10,267 nt of DNA, taken from the NCBI GenBank assembly GCA_964646045.1, contig CAZYAW010000164.1, positions 1 through 10,267 on the forward strand, read 5' to 3'. Numbering within the stretch: the stretch's first letter is position 1; each line of letters starts with the position of its first letter. The notes beneath the pieces were generated by a model that was not told where the DNA came from, did not search any database, and saw only the letters and a program-made list of their open reading frames with translations. A program made the position numbers and the translations under genes. This stretch comes from an uncultured Victivallales bacterium (GTDB taxonomy: Bacteria; Verrucomicrobiota; Kiritimatiellia; UBA8416; SLMC01). Below, piece after piece: positions 1-10,267 of the stretch.

Positions 1-214
1 CCGAGGCCGCGTACTGCGGCAATATGGTCTTCAGCGCGCGGCGGCCGCCCAATGTCGTGTGCTCGGCCTCGTACACCTCGCCCATGCCGCCGCGGCCCAG
101 GGGGCGTATGATCTTGTACTGGCCCAGGGTTTGACCGGCAGACAGCGTGTAGCCGCCGGACTGGGCTGCGCCGGTTATAGTTCGGTCGGTGCCTATGGAG
201 TTTTCGGTTGTCAT
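1..214 (-). CDS. Ser/Thr protein kinase, N-terminal part (gene continues beyond the left window edge)
   Basis: The minus-strand translation from the ATG at 214..212 reads [71 protein letters not shown]. This contains a Hanks-kinase glycine loop ([10 protein letters not shown]) and the invariant subdomain-II lysine (ALK). There is an in-frame stop upstream at 250..248 and no stop before the window edge. It is not in the ORF table because it is open-ended. There is no clear SD. Confidence 0.7.
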
Positions 215-350: not shown

Positions 351-1202
351 TCAGCCTCTGGCCGCGATGCGTTCACAGGCCCAGTAGCTGTAGCCGCCGC
401 AAATCGACAGCGCCGCCAGGAGTTTGACCGCCCCGAACAAGCCGTCGAGATCGAAGCTCCAGAACGCCATGGCCAAAGCCAGCCCCAGAACGGTATGGCC
501 GAACACCAGCAGAAAGCTCGCCAAGTTGCTTTTTTTGCCGACGGCCTTGTGCGTGGCGGCGGCCGACACCCAGGGCAGCAGCGCCACGAACGCCAGCCAG
601 AGAACCAGTCGCGTCCAGCCGCTCATGCCGCGCATGCGCATGGCGGCCCTTGCGGCGGGACCGGGTCGCCAGTCGCGCTCGAAGGTTCCGGACACCAGCG
701 TCTCGCCGGCCCGGGCATCGAAGACATGCAGCCGCAGCGCGGCGGTCGCGCCGACATCCGTCTGTTCCACCTTGAGGGTTTCGCCGGCCACAACGGCGTC
801 GATGCCCACGCGGCGGCCCGCATTCACGACTTCGTCGAGGCCGGTGGCGTTGAGCACGCTGCGGGCGACATCGGCCAGAAACCGCTGGATCGGCGACTCG
901 TCGAGCGCCGTCCAGTTCTTGCGGCTCGCGATGAACTCGCGCGTTATCTGCGTGACCTGGTCTCCGGAGTCCCCGACGAAGCGCGCCACTCCGAAACGCG
1001 TGGGCCGCTCGCCGATGCGCTCGACGACAGGGGCGAAGGCCGTCTCGACGGCGGCCAGCACGGCCCTGCGCTCGCTTTCGGAATAGACCCGGGGTCGCGG
1101 CCGGCTGAACACCCAGACCTGCCAGACCACGAACGCCACCAGTAAAACAAAAAATATACGGGCGGGCAGCAGCAGCGCTCTGGTCACGGACGGCAGTCTC
1201 AT
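351..1202 (-). CDS. Integral membrane protein of unknown function (N-terminal TM helix plus a C-terminal cluster of 2-3 TM helices)
   Basis: 283-aa ORF with hydrophobic segments (IFFVLLVAFVVWQVWVF; LVLWLAFVALLPWV; LLVFGHTVLGLALAMAFW; LLAALSICGGY). An SD-like AAAGGA lies ~9 nt upstream of the ATG at 1202 on the minus strand. The opposite-strand ORF 189..1145 is R/A/G/P low-complexity. It sits upstream of, and co-oriented with, the kinase at 214..1. Confidence 0.6.
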   Translation of the reverse strand: MRLPSVTRALLLPARIFFVLLVAFVVWQVWVFSRPRPRVYSESERRAVLAAVETAFAPVVERIGERPTRFGVARFVGDSGDQVTQITREFIASRKNWTALDESPIQRFLADVARSVLNATGLDEVVNAGRRVGIDAVVAGETLKVEQTDVGATAALRLHVFDARAGETLVSGTFERDWRPGPAARAAMRMRGMSGWTRLVLWLAFVALLPWVSAAATHKAVGKKSNLASFLLVFGHTVLGLALAMAFWSFDLDGLFGAVKLLAALSICGGYSYWACERIAARG

Positions 1203-1442: not shown

Positions 1443-1787
1443 ATGAGCGCGAACAGCGACAAAAAGGAATTTCTTTCGGTGGACGAGGTCGCCAGGCTTC
1501 TCGGGGTGACGTATCATCTCATTTACCGCCTGGTGCGCGAGGGCGAGATACCGGCCTCGCGCATCGGCAAGGTGTACCGGGTGCGCCAGGCCGATCTCGA
1601 CGCGTATCTGGAGCGGTCCAAAACCGACGCGCCGCAGGGAACCGACTGCGCGGTGTGCGGCAAGACGTATGCCAGCCGGTTTTCGATCAAGGGCCAGTGC
1701 GAGGAATGCGAGGCTCCGATTTGCACGGACTGCTGGACGCGCAAGGGCGTACGGCGCTGTCCGGAACATGCGAAGCGGCAGGGATGA
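1443..1787 (+). CDS. Excisionase/MerR-type helix-turn-helix DNA-binding protein with a C-terminal Cys-rich (zinc-ribbon-like) domain; probable regulator, first gene of the cluster
   Basis: MSANSDKKEFLSVDEVARLLGVTYHLIYRLVREGEIPASRIGKVYRVRQADLDAYL matches the excisionase-family HTH pattern. It is followed by CAVCGK...CEECEAPICTDCW...RCPEH (Cys pairs). I prefer the ATG at 1443: the in-frame Met at 1344 falls inside the predicted promoter, so the listed ORF 1344..1787 is trimmed. The start is uncertain because GGAGG sits 22 nt upstream. Confidence 0.65.
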   Translation: MSANSDKKEFLSVDEVARLLGVTYHLIYRLVREGEIPASRIGKVYRVRQADLDAYLERSKTDAPQGTDCAVCGKTYASRFSIKGQCEECEAPICTDCWTRKGVRRCPEHAKRQG

Positions 1788-1807
1788 GGATGCGGGGACG
1801 ATAAACG

Positions 1808-1828
1808 TTGCCGGCGGGCTGCCGGCAA
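1808..1828. other. 8-bp perfect hairpin (ttgccggc / gggct / gccggcaa) in the 58-nt spacer between gene 1 and gene 2
   Basis: Inverted repeat read directly. No U-run follows it. It ends 5 nt before the GGAGG SD of the next gene. Confidence 0.25.
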
Positions 1829-1844
1829 GAGACGGAGGTGAGCG

Positions 1845-3509
1845 ATGGGAATTTTTTCCGACAAGTGTCAGGCCCTGATCGACGGGGAAAGCGGACGCGC
1901 GCTGACGGGGGAGGCTTTGGCCAAAGCCCGGCAGGAGCGCAAGTGGCCGCGCTGCGGAAACCGGGTGCCCAGGGCGGCGCGGTTCTGCAACGCCTGCGGA
2001 CAGGCGGCGCCGGGCGGCTGGTGGCAGTGTCCGGCCTGCGGCAAGTGGGTGGGCAACGATTCCCGGTTCTGCGCACACTGCGATACGCCGCTGCAGCCCG
2101 AGTCCCGGGTCGACATGGCGGGCGGGGTCTGGCGCAAGGGGCCGGAGACGCTGGCGCAGCGCTTCGAGGCGGGCGATGTGAAGCGGCTGCTGAAGAACGG
2201 GCTGCAGGTTCAGCCGGGCACGGTCGCGGTTTTGCTCGAGGCCGGCAAGGTCGGCGACACGCTGGGCCCGGGCCGTCACGAGCCCGACGGACTGGCGCGC
2301 AAGATCAACTGGTTCGGCAATCCGCCGCCGCGCTCGGTGGTGCTGGTGGAGGCCGGCGACATTGTGCTGCCGGTGCGCGTCGAGGAACTGCGTTCGGCCG
2401 AGCAGATTCCGCTGGAGTTCTACGGCGAGATCGTCCTGCGGTTCGAGCCCAGGCTGGCCGGGGATTTTCTGGAGAATCTGTTCAAGGGCGCCGAGGCGCT
2501 GTCCTACGCCGAACTCGGCGAACGGCTGGGCGGGGAGATCCGCCACGCCGTGGACGAGATGTGCGTGGCCTCGACGATCGACGACCTCGTGCGCGACCCC
2601 AAACGGAGACTGCGGCTCGAGGACGTGATCGAAGGCTCGCTCAAACCGGGGCTCGAACGCTGCGGTTTCAGCCTGGTTCGCGTTTCGCAGGCCGAGTTTC
2701 TGGGCGACGCCTACGACGCGCTGGCCGAAAAAAGCGGCGAGGTCGAGCAGGTCCGCCGCCGCATCGAACTCGATCAGCGGCTGGCCGAGATGCTCGACAA
2801 GGAGAAGATGGGCCGGTTCAAGAGCGAGGCCGAGATCGAGGAATACGCCGCCCAGCTCGCGCAGGAGCGCGGCGTGTCCGAACTGCACCGCGGACGCGAG
2901 ATCGAAATCCTGAAAACGGGCTGGCGGCGGCAGGACCAGCTCGACGAGGCGCGGCGCCTGATGACGCGGGAACGCGACGAGACCGGCCACAAGATCGGCA
3001 TCGCCTCCGAATGGGACGGCTACAACCGCGACAAGCTGGTCGCCGACGCCGACGCCAAGGCCCGGGCCCGCGACAAGGAATTCGAACAGGAGGCCCGCGA
3101 GACCGACAAGGCCCTGGAGTGGCGCAAGGAAAAGAACCGCATCCGTCAGCAGGATCTGGCCGCCACGGCCGACACTCTCAAGGGCCGCAGCCTGCAGGAC
3201 CTGATGGCTCTGATCGACGATCCCGACAAGCGCAGGGACCTGCTGGCGTTCCGGGAGCAGGAGATCAAGAGCGGCATGAGCGAGAGGCAGATACTGGCCA
3301 TGGCCGTCGAGAAGAGTCCGGCGGCCGCCGAGGCGCTGGCCCGCATGGCCGGCAGCGAGCAAGTCAATGCGGAGGCCCGTGTCGAGGAATCCCGCAAGCT
3401 GATGAAAGACATGCTCGACCGCGACGAACGCATCCTCAAGACGGCGCTGGAACCCGGCGTGGAGGCCGCCAGGAACAAAACCGGCAGCACCCACCAGATT
3501 ATCAAGTAG
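1845..3509 (+). CDS. Double zinc-ribbon + SPFH/Band-7 (Band_7_1-type) domain protein with a long C-terminal coiled-coil (flotillin-like)
   Basis: GGAGG sits 6 nt upstream of the ATG. The N-terminus has CPRCGN..FCNACG and CPACGK..FCAHCD zinc ribbons. The segment GDVKRLLKNGLQVQPGTVAVLLEAGKVGDTLGPGRHEPDGL...NWFGNPP...EFYGEIVLRF fits the SPFH Band_7_1 / COG4260 'virion-core-like' pattern. The C-terminal ~250 aa are E/R/K/A/D-rich heptad-like. The antisense 871-aa ORF is low-complexity. Confidence 0.8.
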   Translation: MGIFSDKCQALIDGESGRALTGEALAKARQERKWPRCGNRVPRAARFCNACGQAAPGGWWQCPACGKWVGNDSRFCAHCDTPLQPESRVDMAGGVWRKGPETLAQRFEAGDVKRLLKNGLQVQPGTVAVLLEAGKVGDTLGPGRHEPDGLARKINWFGNPPPRSVVLVEAGDIVLPVRVEELRSAEQIPLEFYGEIVLRFEPRLAGDFLENLFKGAEALSYAELGERLGGEIRHAVDEMCVASTIDDLVRDPKRRLRLEDVIEGSLKPGLERCGFSLVRVSQAEFLGDAYDALAEKSGEVEQVRRRIELDQRLAEMLDKEKMGRFKSEAEIEEYAAQLAQERGVSELHRGREIEILKTGWRRQDQLDEARRLMTRERDETGHKIGIASEWDGYNRDKLVADADAKARARDKEFEQEARETDKALEWRKEKNRIRQQDLAATADTLKGRSLQDLMALIDDPDKRRDLLAFREQEIKSGMSERQILAMAVEKSPAAAEALARMAGSEQVNAEARVEESRKLMKDMLDRDERILKTALEPGVEAARNKTGSTHQIIK

Positions 3510-3528
3510 AAGAGCGGAGACCGTTTCG

Positions 3529-5118
3529 ATGCCGGAAAAGACCAGATGTCCGAACTGCGACAGGCTGACGGAGCCGGGCCGCTTCTGCGCTCGGTGCGGC
3601 GGCGACCTGGGCGCCCCGGCCAGGACCGCGGCGCCGTCCGCCTTGCCGGTTGCGCCCCGCGACACGGTCCCGAAGCGCGAGATCGCGCCGGTCGAGTCCC
3701 CGGCCGATTCGCGGGACGCGAGCCGGCCGCGACCCTGGAGCCGCGCGACGGGCGGTTCCGACATTGCGCGTGCCGCCCAAGCCACGACGCCGGAAGCCCC
3801 GGCCGAACGGACGCGCCCCGCCACGGTAGTCTCCTACTGCAACGATCTCAAGATCGAATGCGATATGGCCCAGATTTTCGTGGCCGACATCAACATGCCG
3901 TTTTTTTTCAGGATCACGCCTCTGGCGGACGGCGTCGAGAAGCCGGTCGTCGAGGTGCGCTGCGACGCCGACAACTGGAGCCATCTCAAGGAGCTGACCA
4001 GAAAGCTGCGCAAGAACCGGTCCGTCGAGCACAGCGTCAACTACCGCCCGGGCCGCGAATCCGGGGGCGTCGTATCCTTCGACATCTACATCGCCTACCT
4101 CAAGGACGGCAAAAGACAGGCTTTCGAGGCCGACGTCCGGCACAAGGTCTATCCGAGCAACAGCAACGCGCGCCAGGTAGTCGACAACATCATTGTCAAC
4201 ATCAGCACCGAGATCAAGACCGGTCACGCCGCCGACATCAATCTGCGCAACGGGCTCGACGAACTCGCCTCCATTCGCGACCGGACCGGAGCCGACGACA
4301 CCCTGCAAAGCCTGATCGACCGCATTTCCTCGATGCCTCGGGCTCTGTCCATACTGCAAATGTATCCCTCCGACTGGCGTTCCGACGAACAACCCGGCGG
4401 GCATCGCGACGCCTGCACGCCCGAGGACGCCCGGCTCGACCGCCTCACGCTGCGGACCGGGGATACGCGGGTGCATCTCTACGCCGTCGAAAGTCTCGCC
4501 GCCGGCAAGCGCCGCGACAACGACCTGGTTACGCGCAACTTCAACCGGGCCGGCAGGGCGACAAGGGAAATCAACGACAAGATCAGCCGCTACCACGCCC
4601 GCTTCGAGCTGCACGACGACCGCTGTTTCGTCGAGGACGGCGGGTTCGACCCGGAGAAGGGAGCCCGCCGTGAATCGGCCAATGGCACCTGGCTTGGCGG
4701 GCGCCGTCTGCCGCCGCTGGGTTCGGCCGAGCTGCCGCCCGGAACCTCGACGCCGGTGTCGCTGGCCGGCGAGGACGTCGGCGCCTTCGCGGCCTTCGCC
4801 TTGAAAGCCACTCCCGCGCTCTGCGCCGCGCCGATCCCGCGCGCCTGCGGCATGTCCGACAACTGCCGACCCGGCACGCTGGCCGCCGTATTTCTGGAAA
4901 GACAGGGCGGCGACGCTCCCGAATCCTACGTCATGCTGGTGCGCTGCGCCGAGCTTGGCCGGCTCTCGCCGGATCTGGCGGGCCTGAAGGTCTGGCGACG
5001 CGGCGACGGAGTCAGGTTCTCGGCCGGAAACCGAAACGACTGGCTGATTCCGGGCGACAGCTTCGGGCTGAACGGCAAAACCGTGTTCGTGGAGCGATTC
5101 CGTCAGTGGGGACTGTAA
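3529..5118 (+). CDS. Zinc-ribbon + Pro-rich linker + domain of unknown function + FHA (forkhead-associated, phospho-Thr-binding) domain protein
   Basis: The N-terminus has CPNCDRLTEPGRFCARCG. The FHA signature is RNFNRAGRATREINDKISRYHARFEL...ESANGTWLGGRRL (G-R...S..H...NGT). The start is 20 nt after the previous stop and is preceded by AGCGGAGA. Residues ~100-330 have no family I recognise. Confidence 0.8.
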   Translation: MPEKTRCPNCDRLTEPGRFCARCGGDLGAPARTAAPSALPVAPRDTVPKREIAPVESPADSRDASRPRPWSRATGGSDIARAAQATTPEAPAERTRPATVVSYCNDLKIECDMAQIFVADINMPFFFRITPLADGVEKPVVEVRCDADNWSHLKELTRKLRKNRSVEHSVNYRPGRESGGVVSFDIYIAYLKDGKRQAFEADVRHKVYPSNSNARQVVDNIIVNISTEIKTGHAADINLRNGLDELASIRDRTGADDTLQSLIDRISSMPRALSILQMYPSDWRSDEQPGGHRDACTPEDARLDRLTLRTGDTRVHLYAVESLAAGKRRDNDLVTRNFNRAGRATREINDKISRYHARFELHDDRCFVEDGGFDPEKGARRESANGTWLGGRRLPPLGSAELPPGTSTPVSLAGEDVGAFAAFALKATPALCAAPIPRACGMSDNCRPGTLAAVFLERQGGDAPESYVMLVRCAELGRLSPDLAGLKVWRRGDGVRFSAGNRNDWLIPGDSFGLNGKTVFVERFRQWGL

Positions 5119-5169
5119 ACGAAAGCGCAAGATCTGGGAAAACAGGGCATACGGAAAGGGGAACCCGAC

Positions 5170-5946
5170 ATGAGAACGAAGAAACAGGGACAATGGCTGT
5201 GGGCGCGGGCGGGCATGGTGGCGGCGGCGATGCTGACGCAGGGCTGCGGGACCGCGGCGGTGATGCGACCGGCCGACCGGACCGCCGATTCCGAGTCCGT
5301 CGCCGCGACAACGGCCGAGGAGCACGCCAGGCTGCTGAACCTGCGCATCGACGCCCGGGGTTCGGGCGCGCACGACAAGACCGTGGCCGGGCTCGTCGGG
5401 CGAAGCGTCTCCGGCAGTCTCCTGCGGCAGGGCTACCGCATGGAGGACGGAACCGCCGACGTGCTGGTCAGCCTGACGGCCGAGGCCAAGGTCTTCGACA
5501 AGAGCGGCAACTACTACCGGCACGACGGCACGCTCGACGCCGAAGTCAGCCTGCCGCCGGCCCGGCGCAAGATCGGCCGACAGAGCTTCACCGCCCGCGG
5601 CGACCGCAAGCTGGGCGAAACCGAAAGCCTTCGGGACCTCGCCGCCAGGCTTGCCGAACCCGCCGAAGAATGGGTTCGGACCCTGGCCGGGCCGCTGGGC
5701 TCCGAACTGGCCGTCAACGATGTCGTCGTCCGGCGCTCCAGGCTGAACGCCGTGAAAACCCCGGATTCCCGCTATGCCGAGCGTTTCGTCAAGCGCGTAT
5801 CCGAACTCGACGGCGTTATCTCCTGCGAACTGGTCGGCCAGGACCGCGTCGCCCATGGCATGACTTTCAGAATCGTTTACTACAGGCAGAAGTTCCCCGC
5901 CGGCATGCTCAACCGGCTGGCCAACATGAGCGGGCTCGAGCTGTAG
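5170..5946 (+). CDS. Putative lipoprotein of unknown function
   Basis: The signal peptide MRTKKQGQWLWARAGMVAAAMLTQGC ends in a lipobox-like LTQGC. The SD AAAGGGGA sits ~8 nt upstream of the start. Confidence 0.6.
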   Translation: MRTKKQGQWLWARAGMVAAAMLTQGCGTAAVMRPADRTADSESVAATTAEEHARLLNLRIDARGSGAHDKTVAGLVGRSVSGSLLRQGYRMEDGTADVLVSLTAEAKVFDKSGNYYRHDGTLDAEVSLPPARRKIGRQSFTARGDRKLGETESLRDLAARLAEPAEEWVRTLAGPLGSELAVNDVVVRRSRLNAVKTPDSRYAERFVKRVSELDGVISCELVGQDRVAHGMTFRIVYYRQKFPAGMLNRLANMSGLEL

Positions 5947-6028
5947 CCGCGGAGAAGGGGCGCGAAGGGCGGGACAAGGGAGACGCGATACGCAACCGGG
6001 AAAATATCAACACGGAAGGAAAACTACC

Positions 6029-7117
6029 ATGAAAAGACGGGAAACGATCAATATCGGGTGGATGGCGGCCGCGGCGGCTCTGGTTTTCATGCAGCCCGCG
6101 CGGGGATCGGCCGACGAACTGCGCCAGGCCGTCCGCATGGCGGTCGAGGACGCGCGCGACAGCCTCGCCAAAAGCGGACTGCCGCGCGACCGGGGCCTGG
6201 CCGTTCTGCCTTTGACCGGCGACCGGGACCGCTATGTCGAGGGCCTGCTCAAAACCGCGGTCACCGACGCCGGGCTCAAGCATGTCGAGGGCGGCCGCTC
6301 GCCGTTCTGGGACGAAATACTCCGTGAAGTCGAGTGGGCCGAGCGCAAGGAGGACATGCTGGCCCCCGAGACCGCCGCAAAGTTCGGCAAACTGGAAGGC
6401 GTGCGCATGCTGCTCTACGGCACGCTGCGTTCCGCGCGCCGCGAGACCCACCGGGTCTTCGTCGAGATCGAGCTGCACGTCAGCGACATCGAGACCGGCC
6501 GCCACCTCTGGGGAACCGCGGTCAGCCGCCGGTTCTACCTGCCCGGCGCCGTGCAGGGCATTGTCGATCTCGACACCGACGCCCGCAACGCCATCGACCG
6601 CACCATCGAGAAGGGGCTGGAGTCCCTGAAGGGCAGCGACAAGCTCGGCGAAATTCGGACTGTGGCGATGGTTCCGCTGGCCGGCGACATCGACAGCTAC
6701 GTCGGCGGGCGCGTGCAGGACATGGTCTCGCGGACTCGGCTGAACCCCAAGAACCTCGACCTGCCGACTCTCGGCGAGGCCCGTCAGCTCATGCGCGACC
6801 GGCCCGAACAGGCCGACGCCGTGCTCTACGGCGCATTGCGCGACCTCTCGCGCCGTCTGGTGCGCGAGGAAACCATGCGTACCACGCACGAGGTCTCGGC
6901 GGAAATCCAGCTTGTCATCCAGTCCGCCTCTACAGGGGAAGTGCTCTGGAGCGACACGCTGCGTCATGTCGAGGAGGTCACGCCCGCGAAACCCGGCGAG
7001 GAGGCCGTGGTCGAGCTGACCCGCAGGTATCCGCGTCTCTGGCTGTATCTCGGCGGCGGCCTCCTGGGGCTGATCGTTCTGAGCATAATCGTCAAGAAGG
7101 CTACGCGGGTAAGGTAG
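6029..7117 (+). CDS. Secreted protein with two tandem CsgG/LpoB/TolB-N-like domains and a C-terminal TM anchor
   Basis: It has a signal peptide (MKRRETINIGWMAAAAALVFMQPARGSA). There is an internal duplication: LAVLPLTGDRDRYVEGLL...LLYGTL...VFVEIELHVSDIETGRHLWG versus VAMVPLAGDIDSYVGGRV...VLYGAL...VSAEIQLVIQSASTGEVLWS. The C-terminus is hydrophobic (LWLYLGGGLLGLIVLSIIV KKATRVR). The SD GGAAGGAAAA is present. Confidence 0.7.
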   Translation: MKRRETINIGWMAAAAALVFMQPARGSADELRQAVRMAVEDARDSLAKSGLPRDRGLAVLPLTGDRDRYVEGLLKTAVTDAGLKHVEGGRSPFWDEILREVEWAERKEDMLAPETAAKFGKLEGVRMLLYGTLRSARRETHRVFVEIELHVSDIETGRHLWGTAVSRRFYLPGAVQGIVDLDTDARNAIDRTIEKGLESLKGSDKLGEIRTVAMVPLAGDIDSYVGGRVQDMVSRTRLNPKNLDLPTLGEARQLMRDRPEQADAVLYGALRDLSRRLVREETMRTTHEVSAEIQLVIQSASTGEVLWSDTLRHVEEVTPAKPGEEAVVELTRRYPRLWLYLGGGLLGLIVLSIIVKKATRVR

Positions 7118-7337
7118 GCGGGGGGCCGCTTGCCGATCTTGTTTCGGCGGATGCCGGCGTCGCGGAGCGCCCCGTCCGGGACGTTCGCCGCGATTTTGCG
7201 CGACTACCGGCCCCGGCGGGGCTCCGCGTCTTTGCCCCGCCCGACAATGCGGACGGGGACGGGACAACCGGGCTGGGCTTGCGTGTTCCGCTCCGCCGAC
7301 AGCCCCATGCCGCCGACGCTCCGGGAATCCGCTTCTC

Positions 7338-7351
7338 AGCGCGCAAGCGCT
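7338..7351. other. Small GC hairpin with a GCAA (GNRA) loop abutting the distal end of the TR
   Basis: agcgc-gcaa-gcgct read directly. It lies immediately beyond the last TR/VR-homologous base on the TR-sense strand. Confidence 0.25.
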
Positions 7352-7495
7352 CAGCGAGACAACACCAAACGAAACCCGTTGTTGTTGTTACGATTCGACG
7401 GATTGTTGTCGTTGCGGTTCGAACAACGCAGGTTGTCCTGATTGTTGTTGTTCCAGGACGCGCCGCGCCACGCGCCGAACGACCCGCCGAACGTT
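7350..7495 (-). repeat. DGR template repeat (TR), non-coding, 146 bp
   Basis: It is collinear with 9007-9152 at an offset of +1657. The sense (minus) strand reads ...TCC TGG AAC AAC AAC AAT CAG GAC AAC CTG CGT TGT TCG AAC CGC AAC GAC AAC AAT CCG TCG AAT CGT AAC AAC AAC AAC GGG TTT.... All 25 mismatches to the VR lie at TR adenines. It is not within any plausible ORF. It begins 8 nt after the RT stop codon. Confidence 0.85.
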
Positions 7496-7502
7496 CGCCC
7501 GG

Positions 7503-8555
7503 TCATCCAAAACCATGTGCTCTATACTGCCGATAAAGCCCTTTTGTGTTACCGTAGTCCGCAAACGCCTTCCAGCCCTCCGCCGACTTGATGACATCAG
7601 GCATTTCCGTTCTGCCGTCACGCACATCGGCCATGCGGCGACGCATGCGCCGCTCGAACCGGCGTTTGCACTCGCCGATAAGTCGCGGGGAACGGGCGGG
7701 GAAAAAGCGAAATCCGAGAAACGGAACACCGGTTCGCGTTGGAATGATTCGTGTCTTGACCGGATGCAGCGACAGCCTGTCCTCGACCAGCAGTTGCGCA
7801 ATAGCATCCCGGCATGTCCGCAGTGTCGACTTGTCGTCCGCCCACAGAATGAAATCGTCCGTATAGCGCACATAGCCCGGCACGCGCAGTTCTTCCCGGA
7901 TGAAGTGGTCCATGCGATCGAGATACAGGTTCGCCCACAACTGGCTGGTCAGGTTGCCGATCGGCAATCCGCGCTTACGACCTGTCGGCGCAAGCGGATC
8001 GTCCCCGGGGAACCATGCGGGAGCCGTTTCCCCGGATATGCTGGAGCCTATGATGCGGCGGCAAAGCTCAAGGGTGGCACGACAACGTATTGCCCGCGAC
8101 ACCTTGTCGAACAGAATCTCGTGATCGACAGAATCGAAGTATTTGGAGATGTCGCACTTCAGCGCGTAACGGTAACGGTTGGTGAACATCCGGCAACGCT
8201 CGCGGCCCGCCAGCGTTCCCTTGCCCTTGCGACAGGAGTACGAGTCGTGCACGAAACGGCGCTCGATCAATGGCCCGATCACGTTGCACAGCGCATGATG
8301 CACGATCCTGTCGCGGTACGGAGCGGCGCTGATCGTGCGGGTTTTAGGATCGTGTATCCGGAACTTTCGGTAGGCAGAAGGCGTCCAGCGTTCCGCCGTA
8401 AGTTCCTCGTGAATCTGCCGCACAAAACGTTCCCGGTGCAGTTCGAAACGCTCGACATCCTCCTTGCGCGTCTTGCGTTTGCGGGCCTTGGCAGCAGCCG
8501 CGTAAAGATTCTCAAGCGCGCAAATCCCGGCATACAGATTGCCCCGGCTTTTCAC
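7503..8555 (-). CDS. DGR reverse transcriptase
   Basis: RT motifs are present: PKTRTISAAPYRDRIVHHAL; DISKYFDSVDHEIL; GLPIGNLTSQLWANLYL (the DGR-specific IGxxxSQ); YVRYTDDFILW (YxDD); LSLHPVKTRI; FLGFRF. The start is proposed at the GTG at 8555..8553, which overlaps the TGA of the upstream Avd-like gene as GTGA, with AGGGAAAG 8 nt upstream. The open frame itself extends to 8681. Confidence 0.85.
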   Translation of the reverse strand: MKSRGNLYAGICALENLYAAAAKARKRKTRKEDVERFELHRERFVRQIHEELTAERWTPSAYRKFRIHDPKTRTISAAPYRDRIVHHALCNVIGPLIERRFVHDSYSCRKGKGTLAGRERCRMFTNRYRYALKCDISKYFDSVDHEILFDKVSRAIRCRATLELCRRIIGSSISGETAPAWFPGDDPLAPTGRKRGLPIGNLTSQLWANLYLDRMDHFIREELRVPGYVRYTDDFILWADDKSTLRTCRDAIAQLLVEDRLSLHPVKTRIIPTRTGVPFLGFRFFPARSPRLIGECKRRFERRMRRRMADVRDGRTEMPDVIKSAEGWKAFADYGNTKGLYRQYRAHGFG

Positions 8556-8911
8556 GGCGATGCTTTCCCTGACTGCTGCTTGAGCCAGCCGCCGACCATG
8601 CGGCCCGCCTCGTCCAGCTTGCCGTGCACAAAGTCCAGTTGCCTCAAGTTGATCCAACTGCGCTTCTGCACCAGCCGCCACAGAACGCGCAGTTCTTCCA
8701 GCTTCAGATTGATCTCGTCCAGCATCGCGGTCTTTTCCCGCGTGTGGATCGCGCGAACGACAAGCTGAAGCACATCCAGCGTCATCGCGTCAATCCGCTG
8801 CCCGAACGTGAAGCGTTGCGACTTCGGGATGGCCGCCGTGCGGTCGAAAGTCCAGCCGCAGACCTCCTCCCATACGGTGTAAATCGGCGGGCGTTTCGTA
8901 TCCGGTTTCAT
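8552..8911 (-). CDS. avd: Avd-like accessory variability determinant (four-helix-bundle family)
   Basis: 119 aa, positioned between the VR-bearing target and the RT as in characterised DGRs. Its sequence (IYTVWEEV...FPK-like ...RIDAMTLDVLQLVVRAIHT...LEELRVLWRLV...LDEAGRMVGGWLKQ) fits the Avd / 23S-IVS four-helix-bundle pattern as I remember it. The SD is weak. Confidence 0.6.
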   Translation of the reverse strand: MKPDTKRPPIYTVWEEVCGWTFDRTAAIPKSQRFTFGQRIDAMTLDVLQLVVRAIHTREKTAMLDEINLKLEELRVLWRLVQKRSWINLRQLDFVHGKLDEAGRMVGGWLKQQSGKASP

Positions 8912-8936
8912 ATGGAAAATTCAAATTTCAAACTCG

Positions 8937-8973
8937 ACCCGCTCCGCGGGTACGGAAGGCGCCATTCGGCGCC
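8937..8973. other. Two adjacent GC hairpins in the 96-bp gap between the VR stop and avd
   Basis: Both were read directly: acccgc-tcc-gcgggt at 8937-8951 and ggcgcc-attc-ggcgcc at 8958-8973. They sit 35-70 nt downstream of the VR on the sense strand, where DGRs carry a homing-associated stem-loop. Neither is followed by a U-run. Confidence 0.3.
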
Positions 8974-9006
8974 AAAGAAACAAAGGTCAAAGGGTAAATT
9001 TAAGCC

Positions 9007-9152
9007 CTCAGCGAGACAACACCAAACGAAACCCGCGGCGGTCGACACGAAACGACGGAACGTAGGCGCCGCGGTACGAACAACGCAGGTAGCCCTGAGT
9101 GCGGTAGGACCAGGACGCGCCGCGCCACGCGCCGAACGACCCGCCGAACGCT
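9007..9152 (-). repeat. DGR variable repeat (VR) covering the last ~49 codons plus stop of the kinase-FGE target gene
   Basis: It is the counterpart of the TR. It encodes ...GQAFGGSFGAWRGASWSYRTQGYLRCSYRGAYVPSFRVDRRGFRLVLSR*. The TR would instead encode ...GRTFGGSFGAWRGASWNNNNQDNLRCSNRNDNNPSNRNNNNGFRLVLSR*. The 3'-terminal 29 nt on the sense strand are identical to the TR (IMH-like invariant end). Confidence 0.85.
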
Positions 9153-10267
9153 TGTCCTGTGCTGTCTCTGGCGCAGGCCTCCCATACGTTGCCGCCAACG
9201 CCATGAAGACCCCAAGGATTGGCCCAGAGCTTGTCGACGGGCGCCGTTACGGGAAACCCGTCATTGTAGCCGGATATCTTGTCCCATGTTCCAGCACCTT
9301 CCTGTCCGTGATAATTCCCGGCCCGCCCGCTCGGCGGCGGCCAATTGTTGCCCCACGGATATTCCCTACCATCTCCGCACTGCGCGTATGTCATCCATTC
9401 GTCCTCGCTGGGCAGCCGATACCTTGCTCCGCCCAGCGCCGCCTTCTCGCGCTCGGTCAGCCACGCGGCATACGCCTTGGCATCATCAAAATTCACATAC
9501 ACCACCGGCTGGCTGTCACGGTTGAGACTGTGATTCTTATAGCTCTTCGAGTCATGACGCGGTTCCTTTTTCCGGTACTCCCCGTTCGTCACTTCGAATT
9601 TACCCACCCACATCTTCAATGCGTCAATCCACACGAATTTCATACCGGTCGCGGGAGATGTCCAGTTCTGGCCGGCTACCGGCGCACCACGTTGCGACGC
9701 CGCCGCATCCCTCCGAGGCGCAACAGCAGCCGGGGTACTGGCAGGGGGAGGCGTTGGACGGGAACTGACGGCCGGGGCCGAAGGTCTTGCAGCAACACCT
9801 TGGGTCTGCTTCGGCTTGCTGTCACGGCTTATCAAGACCCCGAAGCCGATGACCGCCGCGATAACAACCAGCAGCGCAAAACCGCGTCCGCCCCGCCGTT
9901 TCTTTGCTTTCGGTACGGCAGGCGGCTCTGCGGGCTGACTTCGCGCGGCAAGCTCCTCTCGCCGCCTGGTTTCCTGTGAGCGTTGCTCAGCCTCAGCCTG
10001 CCGCCGGGCGGCCTCCGCCTTTTGCCGCTGCTCGGCGGCCTTTGCACGGCGTTCCTGCTCCAGACGCGCCCGCTCGACTTCCGCCCGCCGCGCCTCTTCC
10101 TCACGCAACCTTTTCGACTCCTTGGCAGCGGCCCCAATCTCACCCCCGTACAGTCCACCCAACGACGCGGCCACTGCCGCCATGTCCGCAGGCCGATCTG
10201 CAGGGTCTTCTTCAAGACAGGAGTCAATCAGGTCGTCCCATGCATCATCAAGCCCAGCAACCAGCTT
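9008..10267 (-). CDS. Ser/Thr protein kinase (C-lobe end; 5' part outside window) - charged coiled-coil linker - single TM helix - extracytoplasmic FGE-sulfatase / C-type-lectin-fold domain; DGR target (variable) protein
   Basis: The frame is open to the window edge. The translation upstream of the first Met reads KLVAGLDDAWDDLIDSCLEEDPADRPADMAAV, a kinase subdomain-XI-like motif. The TM helix is GFALLVVIAAVIGFGVLI. FGE-domain motifs include FEVTNGEY, YRLPSEDEW, YPWGNNW, GNVWEA, GGSFGAWRGASW and RRGFRLV. Confidence 0.85.
   Translation of the reverse strand, partial: KLVAGLDDAWDDLIDSCLEEDPADRPADMAAVAASLGGLYGGEIGAAAKESKRLREEEARRAEVERARLEQERRAKAAEQRQKAEAARRQAEAEQRSQETRRREELAARSQPAEPPAVPKAKKRRGGRGFALLVVIAAVIGFGVLISRDSKPKQTQGVAARPSAPAVSSRPTPPPASTPAAVAPRRDAAASQRGAPVAGQNWTSPATGMKFVWIDALKMWVGKFEVTNGEYRKKEPRHDSKSYKNHSLNRDSQPVVYVNFDDAKAYAAWLTEREKAALGGARYRLPSEDEWMTYAQCGDGREYPWGNNWPPPSGRAGNYHGQEGAGTWDKISGYNDGFPVTAPVDKLWANPWGLHGVGGNVWEACARDSTGQAFGGSFGAWRGASWSYRTQGYLRCSYRGAYVPSFRVDRRGFRLVLSR

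Follow-up and report, generated by a model that had tools for sequence, protein, structure and literature searches.

Layout of the locus

ORF calling on the 10,267-nt stretch of DNA analysed here (the window) places five plus-strand ORFs, all co-directional, between positions 1443 and 7117, with the order and coordinates given in the original prediction. The features of the locus are as follows:

1-213, minus strand: N-terminus of a Ser/Thr protein kinase (translation MTTENS...RALK), cut by the left contig end
351-1202, minus strand: g0, a membrane protein of 283 aa, divergently transcribed
1203-1442, no strand assigned: divergent intergenic region, rich in A and poor in G+C; contains TTGACA at about 1347
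1443-1787, plus strand: g1, ORF of 114 aa
1845-3509, plus strand: g2, ORF of 554 aa
3529-5118, plus strand: g3, ORF of 529 aa
5170-5946, plus strand: g4, ORF of 258 aa
6029-7117, plus strand: g5, ORF of 362 aa
7113-7144, plus strand: terminator-like hairpin with a T-rich tail; 9-bp G+C-rich stem with 6 G-C pairs, tail GATCTTGTTT

The genes are separated by 57, 19, 51 and 82 nt, each gap being 1 nt below the figures noted earlier (58, 20, 52 and 83 nt) because of a different counting convention. Purine runs resembling an SD lie ahead of g2 (GGAGG), g3 (GGAG), g4 (AAGGGG) and g5 (GGAAGGA), but none was found close to the ATG of g1, so that the SD previously assigned to every gene holds for all except the first. 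A consensus scan of the plus strand returned only two terminator-like sites: a weak 5-bp stem inside g5 and the hairpin at 7113-7144, which overlaps the g5 stop codon and closes the plus-strand cluster on the contig (fold of 7100-7150, -24.5 kcal/mol, z = -2.85). The sole strong hairpin thus comes after the last gene, in agreement with the claim that no terminator separates the five. The proposal of one operon stands on two observations, the spacing and the gene order conserved among relatives, which together suggest that g1-g5 are transcribed as a single unit. G+C drops to 0.56 in 1203-1442, the presumed promoter region for both g0 and g1-g5, in which no convincing operator-like repeat was found.

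Domain composition of the encoded proteins

The g1 protein, described earlier as an excisionase-type HTH with a Cys cluster, matches HTH_17 (PF12728; E 7.6e-17, 61.8 bits against a cut-off of 27) and the excisionase-type model TIGR01764 (E 8.4e-17, 61.3 bits against 28.8), and thus belongs to this excisionase/MerR-type family. Its Cys cluster had been counted as the first of three consecutive zinc ribbons. Instead, the C-terminus carries an eight-ligand Cys/His Zn finger (C-x2-C-x14-C-x2-C-x4-C-x2-C-x9-C-x2-H) with weak FYVE_2 and Prok-RING_1 matches over residues 65-102; we read it as a RING/FYVE-like binuclear Zn finger, which leaves the zinc ribbons to g2 and g3. The finger is homologous to the N-terminus of g1L, a ZnF-coiled-coil protein of about 300 aa encoded in related loci (hhalign 99.2%, E 3.3e-19).

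The architecture proposed for g2 was recovered, namely a double Zn ribbon (Pfam DZR, E 4.5e-8), an SPFH domain and a long helical/coiled-coil C-terminal region, but the SPFH subtype was not. The domain matches Band_7 (PF01145; residues 121-332, E 6e-7, 30.1 bits against a curated threshold of 23.6), which places g2 in the SPFH/Band_7 superfamily, rather than Band_7_1 (PF13421), which is found in only 2 of 120 listed homologs; precomputed PF01145 annotations are present on nearly all of these. The family comprises at least 424 full-length homologs, with eight invariant cysteines (C8, C37, C48, C51, C62, C65, C76 and C79) and a conserved N-terminal motif, MGIFSDxC. No TM or hydrophobic segment was found in g2, which looks like a cytoplasmic scaffold protein. 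Sequence searches detected no relative of solved structure, and we therefore regard g2 as a divergent SPFH branch.

The g3 protein is built from the following segments:

1-30: Zn ribbon
32-86: disordered linker
about 105-208: Ig-like beta-sandwich
214-267: three helices
about 300-430: FHA domain
about 450-525: C-terminal beta domain

Its identification as a Zn-ribbon FHA protein agrees with an FHA match above the cut-off (E 1.3e-7, 32.4 bits against 20.7), with the FHA beta-sandwich fold, and with the (near-)invariance of C7, C10, C20 and C23 in 77 family members, the Zn_ribbon_3 match itself reaching just 0.004. The family counts 238 representatives at E<=1e-10. Candidate pThr-binding residues are present (G326-K/R, S353-R-Y-H356 and S383-A-N-G-T387), with G326, S353, H356, S383 and G386 each at least 90% conserved in the same 77 sequences. 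The pThr-binding motifs of the FHA domain are thus intact, and g3 is a predicted pThr reader.

The remaining proteins point to the envelope. No match to g4 was found in Pfam, NCBIfam or PADLOC, and no relatedness to g5 was detectable. Its N-terminus is signal-peptide-like, with a Cys at position 26 (MRTKKQGQWLWARAGMVAAAMLTQGC), as befits the lipoprotein that it was called, but the lipobox is imperfect; g4 is probably an exported protein or lipoprotein, fast evolving and with no recognised domain. The description of g5 as a tandem LpoB-like periplasmic protein is corroborated by a match to Pfam LpoB (residues 105-161, E 1.5e-7, 31.9 bits against a cut-off of 22.3) and by the alignment of its N-terminal to its C-terminal half (hhalign 98.2%, E 3.9e-14), a genuine tandem. 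It has a signal peptide, a C-terminal TM anchor (337-355) followed by a short basic tail, and no lipobox. The first of its two LpoB-like domains also aligns with residues 38-179 of g0 (hhalign 93.5%, E 2.3e-7). With TM segments at 9-27, 199-217 and 227-245, g0 is predicted to have one TM helix at its N-terminus and about three towards its C-terminus, with the LpoB-like domain between them exposed to the periplasm. Given the anchor of g5 and the polytopic nature of g0, neither is a lipoprotein.

LpoB of E. coli is an outer-membrane lipoprotein that activates PBP1B. Its domain is matched twice in g5 and once in g0, but the match covers only about 57 residues, g5 is anchored C-terminally, g0 is polytopic and no PBP partner is encoded nearby; moreover, g5 scores 39.1 bits on TIGR02722, against an equivalog cut-off of 110.55. 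From this partial, sub-cut-off match, together with the signal peptide, C-terminal TM segment and missing lipobox of g5, we conclude that the locus encodes LpoB-like domains and not LpoB, and orthology was rejected for both proteins. The LpoB-like domain represents a generic TolB-N/LpoB-like fold.

Conservation of the cluster and its extension in PVC bacteria

A g2-seeded scan of one genome per species returned 54 loci, all from PVC bacteria (Kiritimatiellae/Lentisphaerae/Verrucomicrobia-type). The order g1-g2-g3(-g4-g5) is repeated in 57 further loci, every one PVC; since these are independent, the cluster is not a chance arrangement, and the neighbourhood anticipated in the original prediction is indeed conserved. 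An upstream g1 occurs in 46 of 55 loci, g3 adjoins g2 in 46 of 47, and g4 and g5 are present and adjacent in 28 of 37, with median intergenic gaps of -4 to 40 nt. A g0 homolog was detected in only 9 of 47 loci; it holds the same divergent position in L006, L007, L008, L031, L034, L045, L053 and L070. The relatives carrying the array are all uncultured MAGs, and the homologs counted above for g2 and g3 are all annotated as hypothetical. No published description of the array was found in the literature searched.

In relatives, g5 is usually followed in the same orientation by g1L, a Snf7-family protein and a single-domain AAA ATPase, so that the canonical array reads g0 (minus strand, in a subset only), then g1, g2, g3, g4, g5, g1L, Snf7-like and AAA. 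One or more of the three additional genes are present in 29 of 37 loci, the Snf7-like and AAA genes together in 20 and the AAA gene in 23, and full arrays are seen, for example, in L070, L114, L129 and L134. Reciprocally, a scan of metagenome contigs seeded with the Snf7-like protein found g2 and g3 in 16 of the 19 loci with at least 7 kb upstream. Judging from these arrays, the functional unit is one of about eight to nine genes, not five. Within 10 kb, all three additional genes are absent from 8 of 37 well-flanked relatives, although in at least one of these (L016) an AAA homolog lies on the same contig beyond the flank. In L006, which shares 71% identity with the window in g2, 46% in g3 and 51% in g4, they lie on the other side of g0. 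No Snf7-like, AAA or g1L gene was found in the window or located for the source organism. A diversity-generating retroelement (DGR) abuts g5 on the contig. The g1L, Snf7-like and AAA genes must either be encoded elsewhere in the genome, on the pattern of L006, or have been lost.

All 23 Snf7-like proteins match Pfam Snf7 (PF03357) at E<=0.01 (best 2.5e-8), some falling just under the gathering threshold (24.6 bits against 27.3 for the first member). Their profile is collinear with residues 10-124 of yeast Snf7, including the hairpin-tip G-x-K...A...L motif, with a PDB match that is non-significant (E 0.16). They share the N-terminus MGFLFFK and an acidic C-terminal helix. PspA_IM30 is matched by none of the 23, nor by any protein in the window. 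By sequence, the protein is of the Snf7 family over its helical hairpin core and thereby part of the PspA/ESCRT-III superfamily.

The AAA ATPase matches PF00004 at 2e-36 to 2e-38, with AAA_lid_3, in 21 of 23 members, and Vps4_C weakly in 4 of 23. Among NCBIfam models, the L007 member obtains similar scores, 195 bits with CDC48, 190 with CdvC (alignment over positions 83-368 of 370), 178 with PAN and 169 with FtsH, and the top 50 Foldseek hits are all p97/Cdc48 D2 (33-37% identity, E 2e-21); a Vps4 identity is not demonstrable from these matches. In its model, three helices form the N-domain, which a disordered linker joins to the AAA module, and a further helix lies at the C-terminus. The N-terminal helices (4-20, 24-43 and 47-74) are compatible with an MIT-like bundle, and a profile search of the N-domain against PDB and Pfam found no MIT domain.

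Kinases recur around these loci. The flanks contain 59 kinase ORFs in 611 kb (25 of 30 loci), 19 of them fused to FGE-sulfatase, which is suggestive of Ser/Thr kinase enrichment around the array. The adjacent kinase reported for the window is real: it starts at about 213 on the minus strand, runs off the left end, and possesses a Gly-rich loop, a catalytic Lys and the N-terminal pattern of kinases flanking related loci. We consider it context outside the core, and a likely signalling input. Together with the intact FHA motifs, the many flanking kinases favour the phospho-signalling idea put forward earlier.

Relation to known systems and proposed function

According to recent reviews, bacteria possess the ESCRT-III-superfamily proteins PspA/Vipp1, with no dedicated Vps4-like ATPase partner (PMC7619361) and with no further ESCRT components identifiable (PMC10936438). 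In Bacillus, the SPFH protein YdjI is required for membrane localisation of PspA, and SPFH proteins are thought to recruit the polymer (PMC11237479; PMC10936438). The analogy to pspA-ydjGHI that was drawn from the five genes gains strength because the array in most relatives runs into a Snf7-family protein of the PspA/ESCRT-III superfamily. Both encode a soluble Zn-ribbon SPFH protein with an ESCRT-III-superfamily polymer and membrane or exported partners. However, the PVC polymer is Snf7-type and not PspA_IM30, the g2 Zn ribbons are N-terminal and its SPFH domain is Band_7 rather than Band_7_1, and neither a TPM (YdjH) nor a 2xZnR-NTF2-TM (YdjG) protein occurs in the recurrent clusters. The array also adds the FHA adaptor, AAA ATPase, HTH-ZnF regulator, LpoB-like periplasmic proteins and Ser/Thr kinases, and is restricted to PVC bacteria. 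A Bacillus-type PspA-YdjGHI system was rejected on the missing PspA_IM30, TPM and NTF2 proteins and the Band_7 domain.

Archaeal non-Asgard ESCRT variants offer a second parallel. In Halo_FHA loci, FHA proteins are encoded alongside Ser/Thr kinases and phosphatases; Meth_adaptin loci code for an SPFH+coiled-coil+Zn-ribbon protein as well as for Zn-ribbon/Ig-like-domain proteins (Makarova et al. 2024, PMC10936438). With both, the PVC array shares an ESCRT-III-family protein and a single-domain AAA ATPase, with the former also an FHA protein and Ser/Thr kinases, and with the latter, in a likeness by description, the architecture of g2; in g3, a Zn ribbon, an Ig-like sandwich and FHA are likewise combined. 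Unlike these variants, the array is bacterial, its AAA ATPase has p97/Cdc48 D2 as closest relative and an N-domain without detectable MIT signature, no wH/ESCRT-II-like or CdvA-like domain was detected, and LpoB-like proteins of the periplasm are included along with a probable lipoprotein, which fits a diderm envelope. Our best reading is that the array resembles both PspA-YdjGHI and the archaeal FHA-/SPFH-containing ESCRT variants and belongs to neither.

Its signalling logic recalls the way in which the Pseudomonas aeruginosa H1-T6SS is controlled by threonine phosphorylation (TagQRST-PpkA-PppA-Fha1). There, envelope perturbation is registered by an outer-membrane lipoprotein together with periplasmic/inner-membrane proteins; phosphorylation by a membrane Ser/Thr kinase follows, after which an FHA scaffold permits a cytoplasmic, membrane-attached machine to assemble. 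The likeness concerns this succession of envelope sensing, kinase and FHA scaffold; the PVC array lacks T6SS structural genes, its output would be SPFH/Snf7/AAA, and the proteins are not known to be homologous past the FHA and kinase domains.

As the array continues into Snf7 and AAA genes in most relatives, g1-g5 looks like one half of a larger system. We favour, with moderate confidence, the view that g1-g5 (with g0) form the sensing and scaffolding half of a PVC-restricted, phospho-Thr-controlled SPFH/ESCRT-III-like system for envelope maintenance or remodelling. Membrane Ser/Thr kinases encoded nearby, of which many have FGE-sulfatase/C-type-lectin-like sensor domains in the periplasm, would phosphorylate a membrane-proximal target; g3 would read the pThr mark and dock onto the g2 scaffold, which the TM proteins g0 and g5 would hold at the inner membrane, reaching into the periplasm with the putative lipoprotein g4. 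This platform might position or license the growth of Snf7-like polymers on the membrane, which would thereby be sealed, stabilised or made to bud, and the AAA ATPase would recycle the polymer. More speculatively still, g1 could be controlled by g1L competing for a common Zn-finger partner, in a PspF/PspA-like sequestration logic.

A neighbouring reading differs only in omitting phospho-signalling and turnover by the ATPase. It posits a Psp-like envelope-stress response with no active remodelling, in which an SPFH cage and Snf7-like polymer patch or stabilise damaged inner membrane, g1 is a stress-responsive regulator, and kinases and FHA are incidental neighbours. It draws on the conserved regulator at the head of the array and on the parallel to Bacillus pspA-ydjGHI with its Zn-ribbon SPFH and ESCRT-III-superfamily proteins (PMC11237479; PMC7619361). 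We nonetheless think it unlikely, as no partner is linked to g2 more tightly than the FHA protein, the AAA ATPase is frequent, and the ESCRT-III-like protein is Snf7-type, not PspA_IM30-type.

Control of peptidoglycan or cell-envelope synthesis seems similarly doubtful. Here, penicillin-binding proteins or other envelope synthases would be modulated by g0, g4 and g5 under cytoplasmic regulation by the FHA protein and the Ser/Thr kinases, while SPFH would be a membrane organiser only and Snf7/AAA a loosely linked neighbour. Mycobacterial FhaA, PknB and MviN provide a precedent. The LpoB and TIGR02722 matches of g5, the homologous domain in g0, the intact FHA motifs with kinases nearby, and the flanks devoid of Snf7 and AAA all fit this idea. 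However, the LpoB match is short, far below the equivalog cut-off and of a generic fold; recurrent peptidoglycan genes (PBP, MurJ/MviN, SEDS or others) are absent from the loci; and g1L, Snf7 and AAA directly follow g5, co-oriented, in most arrays, a linkage also recovered reciprocally.

An anti-phage or conflict system, with receptor kinases (some DGR-diversified) detecting invaders at the envelope and an FHA/SPFH/Snf7/AAA module executing membrane repair, exclusion or abortive infection, is very unlikely: the adjoining DGR, the toxin-antitoxin and transposase genes next to the L007 array, the far faster evolution of g3 and g4 than of g2, the match of the g1 HTH to the MADS Mad1 model (PADLOC, E 2.5e-8, 32 bits) and a weak match of the AAA ATPase to the IteA anti-phage ATPase model are outweighed by the lack of any PADLOC match for g0 and g2-g5, by a Mad1 match that reflects the shared HTH_17 fold far under the cut-off, by the lack of a conserved DGR association (a phmmer search with the window RT found ORFs in 2 loci only, in a set that included the window-identical contigs L001-L005), and by the single locus per genome hit in the one-genome-per-species scan and stable order across three PVC phyla-level groups, a pattern that looks like vertical inheritance of a housekeeping or stress system and not like a patchy defence island.

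The favoured SPFH/ESCRT-III-like system might also go further, although we hold this to be rather improbable, and act as an ESCRT-like cargo-selecting machine, in which kinase pThr marks are read by the ZnR-Ig-FHA adaptor and SPFH/Snf7/AAA then bud, invaginate or excise the marked patch. The receptor kinases would bind periplasmic ligands, with lectin-fold ectodomains that in some cases would be DGR-hypervariable. The PVC superphylum is known for endomembranes and endocytosis-like uptake. If cargo selection were true, archaeal FHA-/SPFH-containing ESCRT systems would have a counterpart in bacteria, whether through convergence or through ancient relationship.

A bacterial array thus unites a Snf7-type protein, a single-domain classical AAA ATPase, a Zn-ribbon SPFH scaffold and an FHA adaptor with an HTH regulator, periplasmic proteins and receptor Ser/Thr kinases, in at least 54 species-level PVC genomes. 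Even if it were 'only' a lineage-specific envelope-stress system, it would still place several large hypothetical-protein families in a context. If it works as proposed, the cooperation of an SPFH platform with an ESCRT-III-like polymer, the gating of bacterial membrane remodelling by a phospho-signal, and the ancient or convergent origin of the archaeal SPFH-/FHA-ESCRT-III links would become testable.

Organization of the gene cluster and its predicted proteins

The window is an entire metagenomic contig (10,267 nt), and no recorded contig with its g2 protein is longer. The five plus-strand genes that the original prediction grouped together (g1-g5) are preceded by a divergent membrane-protein gene (g0) and followed by a diversity-generating retroelement (DGR).

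Features of the window (genes from six-frame ORFs and domain scans)
from ~213, off the left end, minus strand: Ser/Thr kinase N-terminus
351-1202, minus strand: g0, membrane protein of 283 aa
between g0 and g1: A-rich intergenic region of 240 nt
1443-1787, plus strand: g1
1845-3509, plus strand: g2
3529-5118, plus strand: g3
5170-5946, plus strand: g4
6029-7117, plus strand: g5
7345-10183, minus strand: complete DGR cassette, convergent to the cluster

The cluster, with a G+C content of ~66-70%, is borne out by its ORFs, their spacing, and the position of the sole convincing plus-strand terminator-like hairpin, which overlaps the g5 stop codon (7113-7144; -24.5 kcal/mol, z -2.85). The spacing proposed for the genes (58, 20, 52, and 83 nt) holds, but each count was off by one, the actual gaps being 57, 19, 51, and 82 nt. 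SD-like purine-rich motifs are found upstream of g2, g3, g4, and g5, and a search of the stretch between g0 and g1 for operator-like repeats returned only short, chance-level matches.

Zinc ribbons had been predicted in three consecutive proteins, and those of g2 and g3 were recovered. In g1, an HTH_17/excisionase-type DNA-binding domain (E about 1e-16) is instead followed by a C-terminal eight-ligand Cys/His cluster with a weak likeness to FYVE/RING fingers. The g2 protein features two Zn ribbons with eight invariant cysteines, an SPFH domain, and a long helical C-terminal half; no hydrophobic segment was found in it. Its SPFH domain scores above the Pfam cut-off as Band_7, and only the more specific label 'Band_7_1' had to be dropped. 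When PDB sequences were searched with the profile of g2, only Zn-ribbon look-alikes (LapB and L37a, for example) were retrieved, none of them an SPFH structure, so that this search was of no use for sub-classing the domain. The predicted structure of g3 (pLDDT 85.5, 77-sequence alignment) comprises a Zn ribbon (residues 1-30) and, beyond a disordered linker (32-86), a beta-sandwich, three helices, the anticipated FHA domain, and a C-terminal beta domain. In agreement with the FHA assignment, the canonical residues predicted to bind pThr (G-R, S-x-x-H, and N-G-T) are present and conserved.

The g4 protein has a signal/lipobox-like N-terminus and no family detectable in domain scans; a diverged LpoB-like domain was rejected, as hhalign comparison with both halves of g5 gave no signal. 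In g5, a signal peptide precedes a pair of LpoB-like domains that are homologous to each other (hhalign 98.2%), and a TM anchor lies at the C-terminus. A single LpoB-like domain of this kind is found in g0, flanked by one TM helix on its N-terminal side and about three on its C-terminal side. Based on these domain and TM/signal predictions, g1, g2, and g3 are thus likely cytoplasmic, and g0, g4, and g5 are predicted to face the periplasm.

Conservation of the cluster and its Snf7-like and AAA partners

At least 424 full-length g2 homologs (43-73% identity) were found, the named ones in MAGs of Kiritimatiellia, Lentisphaerae, Verrucomicrobia, and 'Planctomycetota'. For g3, a word-indexed search returned four homologs and an exhaustive profile search 238 family representatives (E<=1e-10), mostly full length. 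The g1-g5 order plus divergent g0 occurs in all three long contigs with g2 homologs of 48-71% identity, and a one-genome-per-species scan yielded 54 loci, exclusively from Kiritimatiellae/Lentisphaerae/Verrucomicrobia-type (PVC) bacteria. To count conservation, ORFs were called in the scan loci, iterated profiles were used for g0-g5, and leftover ORFs were clustered; the g0 counts, which come from the first-iteration profile because later iterations drifted into g5-like proteins, are probably underestimates. Neighbourhood conservation had been set beforehand as a test, and the order is kept: g3 adjoins g2 in 46/47 loci, g1 lies upstream of g2 in 46/55, and g4 and g5 are both present in 28/37, with median intergenic gaps of -4 to 40 nt. 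Chance juxtaposition of the genes is excluded.

Protein identity to the window in three related loci (L006, the closest long relative; L007; L034)
g2: 71%, 48%, 40%
g1: 67%, 53%, 50%
g5: 63%, 44%, 41%
g0: 51%, 38%, 39%
g4: 51%, 31%, 28%
g3: 46%, 27%, 25%

Between the same genome pairs, g3 and g4 diverge about twice as much as g2, possibly because they co-evolve with partners that vary, for instance the kinases or periplasmic ligands.

Another three gene families are found repeatedly, oriented alike and most often immediately 3' of g5. The first, g1L (~300 aa), shares its N-terminal Zn finger with the g1 C-terminus (hhalign 99.2%, E 3e-19) and is otherwise helical; its candidacy as a second ESCRT-III-like protein was rejected (hhalign probability 0.4% against the Snf7-like alignment). 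The second, c9 (~207 aa), matches Pfam Snf7 in 23/23 tested members (best E 2.5e-8), none of which matches PspA_IM30, and its profile is collinear with the yeast Snf7 core; the Snf7 family is a reasonable, if remote, assignment. Members of c9 have an acidic C-terminal helix and a conserved hydrophobic N-terminus (MGFLFFK); the Kiritimatiellae form (193 aa) lacks the C-terminal helix ELDxRIxxGQERVKxLL found in other c9 proteins. The g2 protein likewise begins with Met-Gly and a hydrophobic run (MGIFSDxC), and both starts, noted in L007 (15793-19739), L006 (1728-4349), and the whole arrays of L070, L129, and L134, could be membrane-insertion or modification motifs. Proteins of the third family, c10 (~375 aa), are classical AAA ATPases that have one AAA domain (PF00004, about 1e-36) plus AAA_lid_3.

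At least one of g1L, c9, and c10 is present in 29 of the 37 well-flanked loci, and c9 and c10 occur together in 20/37. As an independent reciprocal check, the c9 alignment was used to seed a scan of metagenome contigs. Among the 19 loci that extend 7 kb or more upstream, 16 have g2 and g3, and two of the other three are a contig end or the alternative arrangement; g1L precedes c9 in 38/53 c9-seeded loci and c10 follows it in 28/42. The full array g1-g2-g3-g4-g5-g1L-c9-c10 is found, for example, in L114, L129, and L134, and together with divergent g0 in L070, while Kiritimatiellae variants are ordered g1-g2-g3-c9-c10-g1L-g5-g4. The divergent arm of L006 consists of g0, a 70-aa ORF, an AAA gene, g1L, and a Snf7-like gene. 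Because a kinase gene occupies the equivalent of this position in the window and the DGR, with a G+C content of 0.58-0.63 (lower than that of the cluster), the position after g5, the window holds the first half of the system only. The cluster forms the conserved 5' half of a system, SPFH-FHA-Snf7-AAA, that is PVC-specific and undescribed in the literature searched.

The g1L, Snf7, and AAA genes of the window's own organism were not found among identical-protein contigs, which span at most 5.7 kb and end at the cluster borders, and none of the AAA homologs among the matches listed is more than 65% identical to the AAA protein of the closest relative. Independent assemblies of the same organism that are identical to the window over the cluster (L001-L005) all break near its edges, on the left shortly before g1 and on the right shortly past g5. 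These breaks fit flanks that vary between strains or are repeated; to the right of the cluster lies the DGR template/variable repeat. Small ORFs upstream of g1 in L004 and L005 differ from those of the window.

Ser/Thr kinases and two kinds of protease accompany the arrays less often. The proteases, a serine protease of the Trypsin_2 type (E 7e-15) and an M48-like membrane peptidase (a TM protein that contains HExxH, with weak M48/DUF4344 matches), recur 3' of arrays (L006 11504-17880, L007 19996-21629, L028 15968-17020, and L060-L062). In L006, they are followed by the gene of an Ig/FGE-sulfatase protein that is at least 2,700 aa long. L007 also carries, less than 8 kb upstream of the system, genes of a toxin-antitoxin pair (ParE/RelB) and of a DDE transposase (1967-2429 and 3989-5743), which were not seen to recur.

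Kinases and a retroelement in the flanks

Ser/Thr kinases appear unusually dense around the system, with 59 kinase ORFs in 611 kb (25/30 loci), or ~1 per 10 kb, a density counted in the flanks alone. Examples are window 1-213 (minus strand), L007 1-8108, and L008 15299-21617. The flank kinases and the window's partial kinase have in common an N-terminal motif, G-Q-x-F/L-G-Q-Y...LGRGGMG. Nineteen of the kinases are fused to FGE-sulfatase ectodomains, the same fold as in the DGR target.

Components of the DGR (all minus strand)
7345-7503: template repeat (TR)
7503-8681: reverse transcriptase
8552-8911: Avd (NF033474, E 2e-24)
9008-10183: target gene
9002-9160: variable repeat (VR), at the target-gene 3' end

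Over 159 nt, TR and VR share 82% identity, and 25 of the 29 mismatches replace a TR adenine with any base in VR. In the target protein, a TM helix joins a cytoplasmic coiled coil to an ectodomain of the FGE-sulfatase/C-type-lectin fold. A DGR beside the system is not conserved elsewhere: in a phmmer search of a set that included the window-identical L001-L005, the window's reverse transcriptase matched two loci only.

Relation to known systems and proposed mechanism

The system extends two known kinds, PspA/ESCRT-III-SPFH membrane systems and FHA-kinase signalling. As in g2, a Zn-ribbon SPFH protein occurs in Bacillus PspA-YdjGHI, where it is required to place PspA on the membrane (PMC11237479; PMC10936438), and archaeal 'Meth_adaptin' ESCRT loci encode an SPFH, coiled-coil, and Zn-ribbon protein (PMC10936438). 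Archaeal 'Halo_FHA' loci combine FHA proteins with Ser/Thr kinases and phosphatases (PMC10936438), resembling g3 and the flank kinases. The original prediction of membrane-stress likeness and phospho-signalling is supported, the latter by the FHA motifs and the flank kinases, and can be extended to the Snf7/AAA partners.

The c10 model has a Vps4-like layout (three-helix N-domain, disordered linker, one AAA module, and C-terminal helix), whereas its nearest solved relatives are p97/Cdc48 D2 in Foldseek output, which is saturated by the AAA module. Curated CDC48, CdvC, PAN, and FtsH models give it similar scores, and an MIT identity of the N-domain is unsupported at the sequence level. A PDB profile search with the AAA alignment is unfit for clade assignment, as it ranked two-domain p97/Cdc48 proteins first because the scores of their two domains add up. 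Given the p97/Cdc48 D2 relatives, the similar model scores, and the missing MIT signature, we regard the array as probably ESCRT-like in its way of working, without assigning it to the Vps4/ESCRT family.

Gene content, order, domain folds, predicted topology, and conservation are the established basis for a possible mechanism. Neighbouring receptor kinases would make pThr marks, which the g3 FHA domain would read. Subsequently, g3 and g2 might associate, perhaps via their Zn ribbons, on a platform for which g0 and g5 would be the anchors and to which g4 would be linked in the periplasm. This platform would set the place and time of Snf7-like polymerisation, with the AAA ATPase recycling the Snf7-like protein, and g1 would autoregulate the locus, itself controlled via the Zn finger common to g1L. 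The membrane could be sealed and stabilised, a Psp-like outcome, or could actively bud or invaginate, an ESCRT-like one; the data do not discriminate between the two. Rival explanations are a passive Psp-like response, control of peptidoglycan synthesis, and a defence system; a PADLOC scan of g0-g5 gave only a generic HTH match, and the defence reading was not adopted. The main weaknesses of our account are that the Snf7 and AAA genes are not on this contig, that c10 shows neither a clear Vps4 affinity nor an MIT signature in its sequence, and that the mechanism is a proposal drawn from sequence.

We found no description of the PVC array in the literature searched, whose coverage was incomplete, making this absence of evidence only. 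ESCRT components have been described as not identifiable in bacteria (PMC10936438), and a Vps4-like ATPase as apparently missing from bacterial systems (PMC7619361). With this system, bacteria would have a Snf7-type polymer together with its dedicated AAA ATPase and a phospho-reader.
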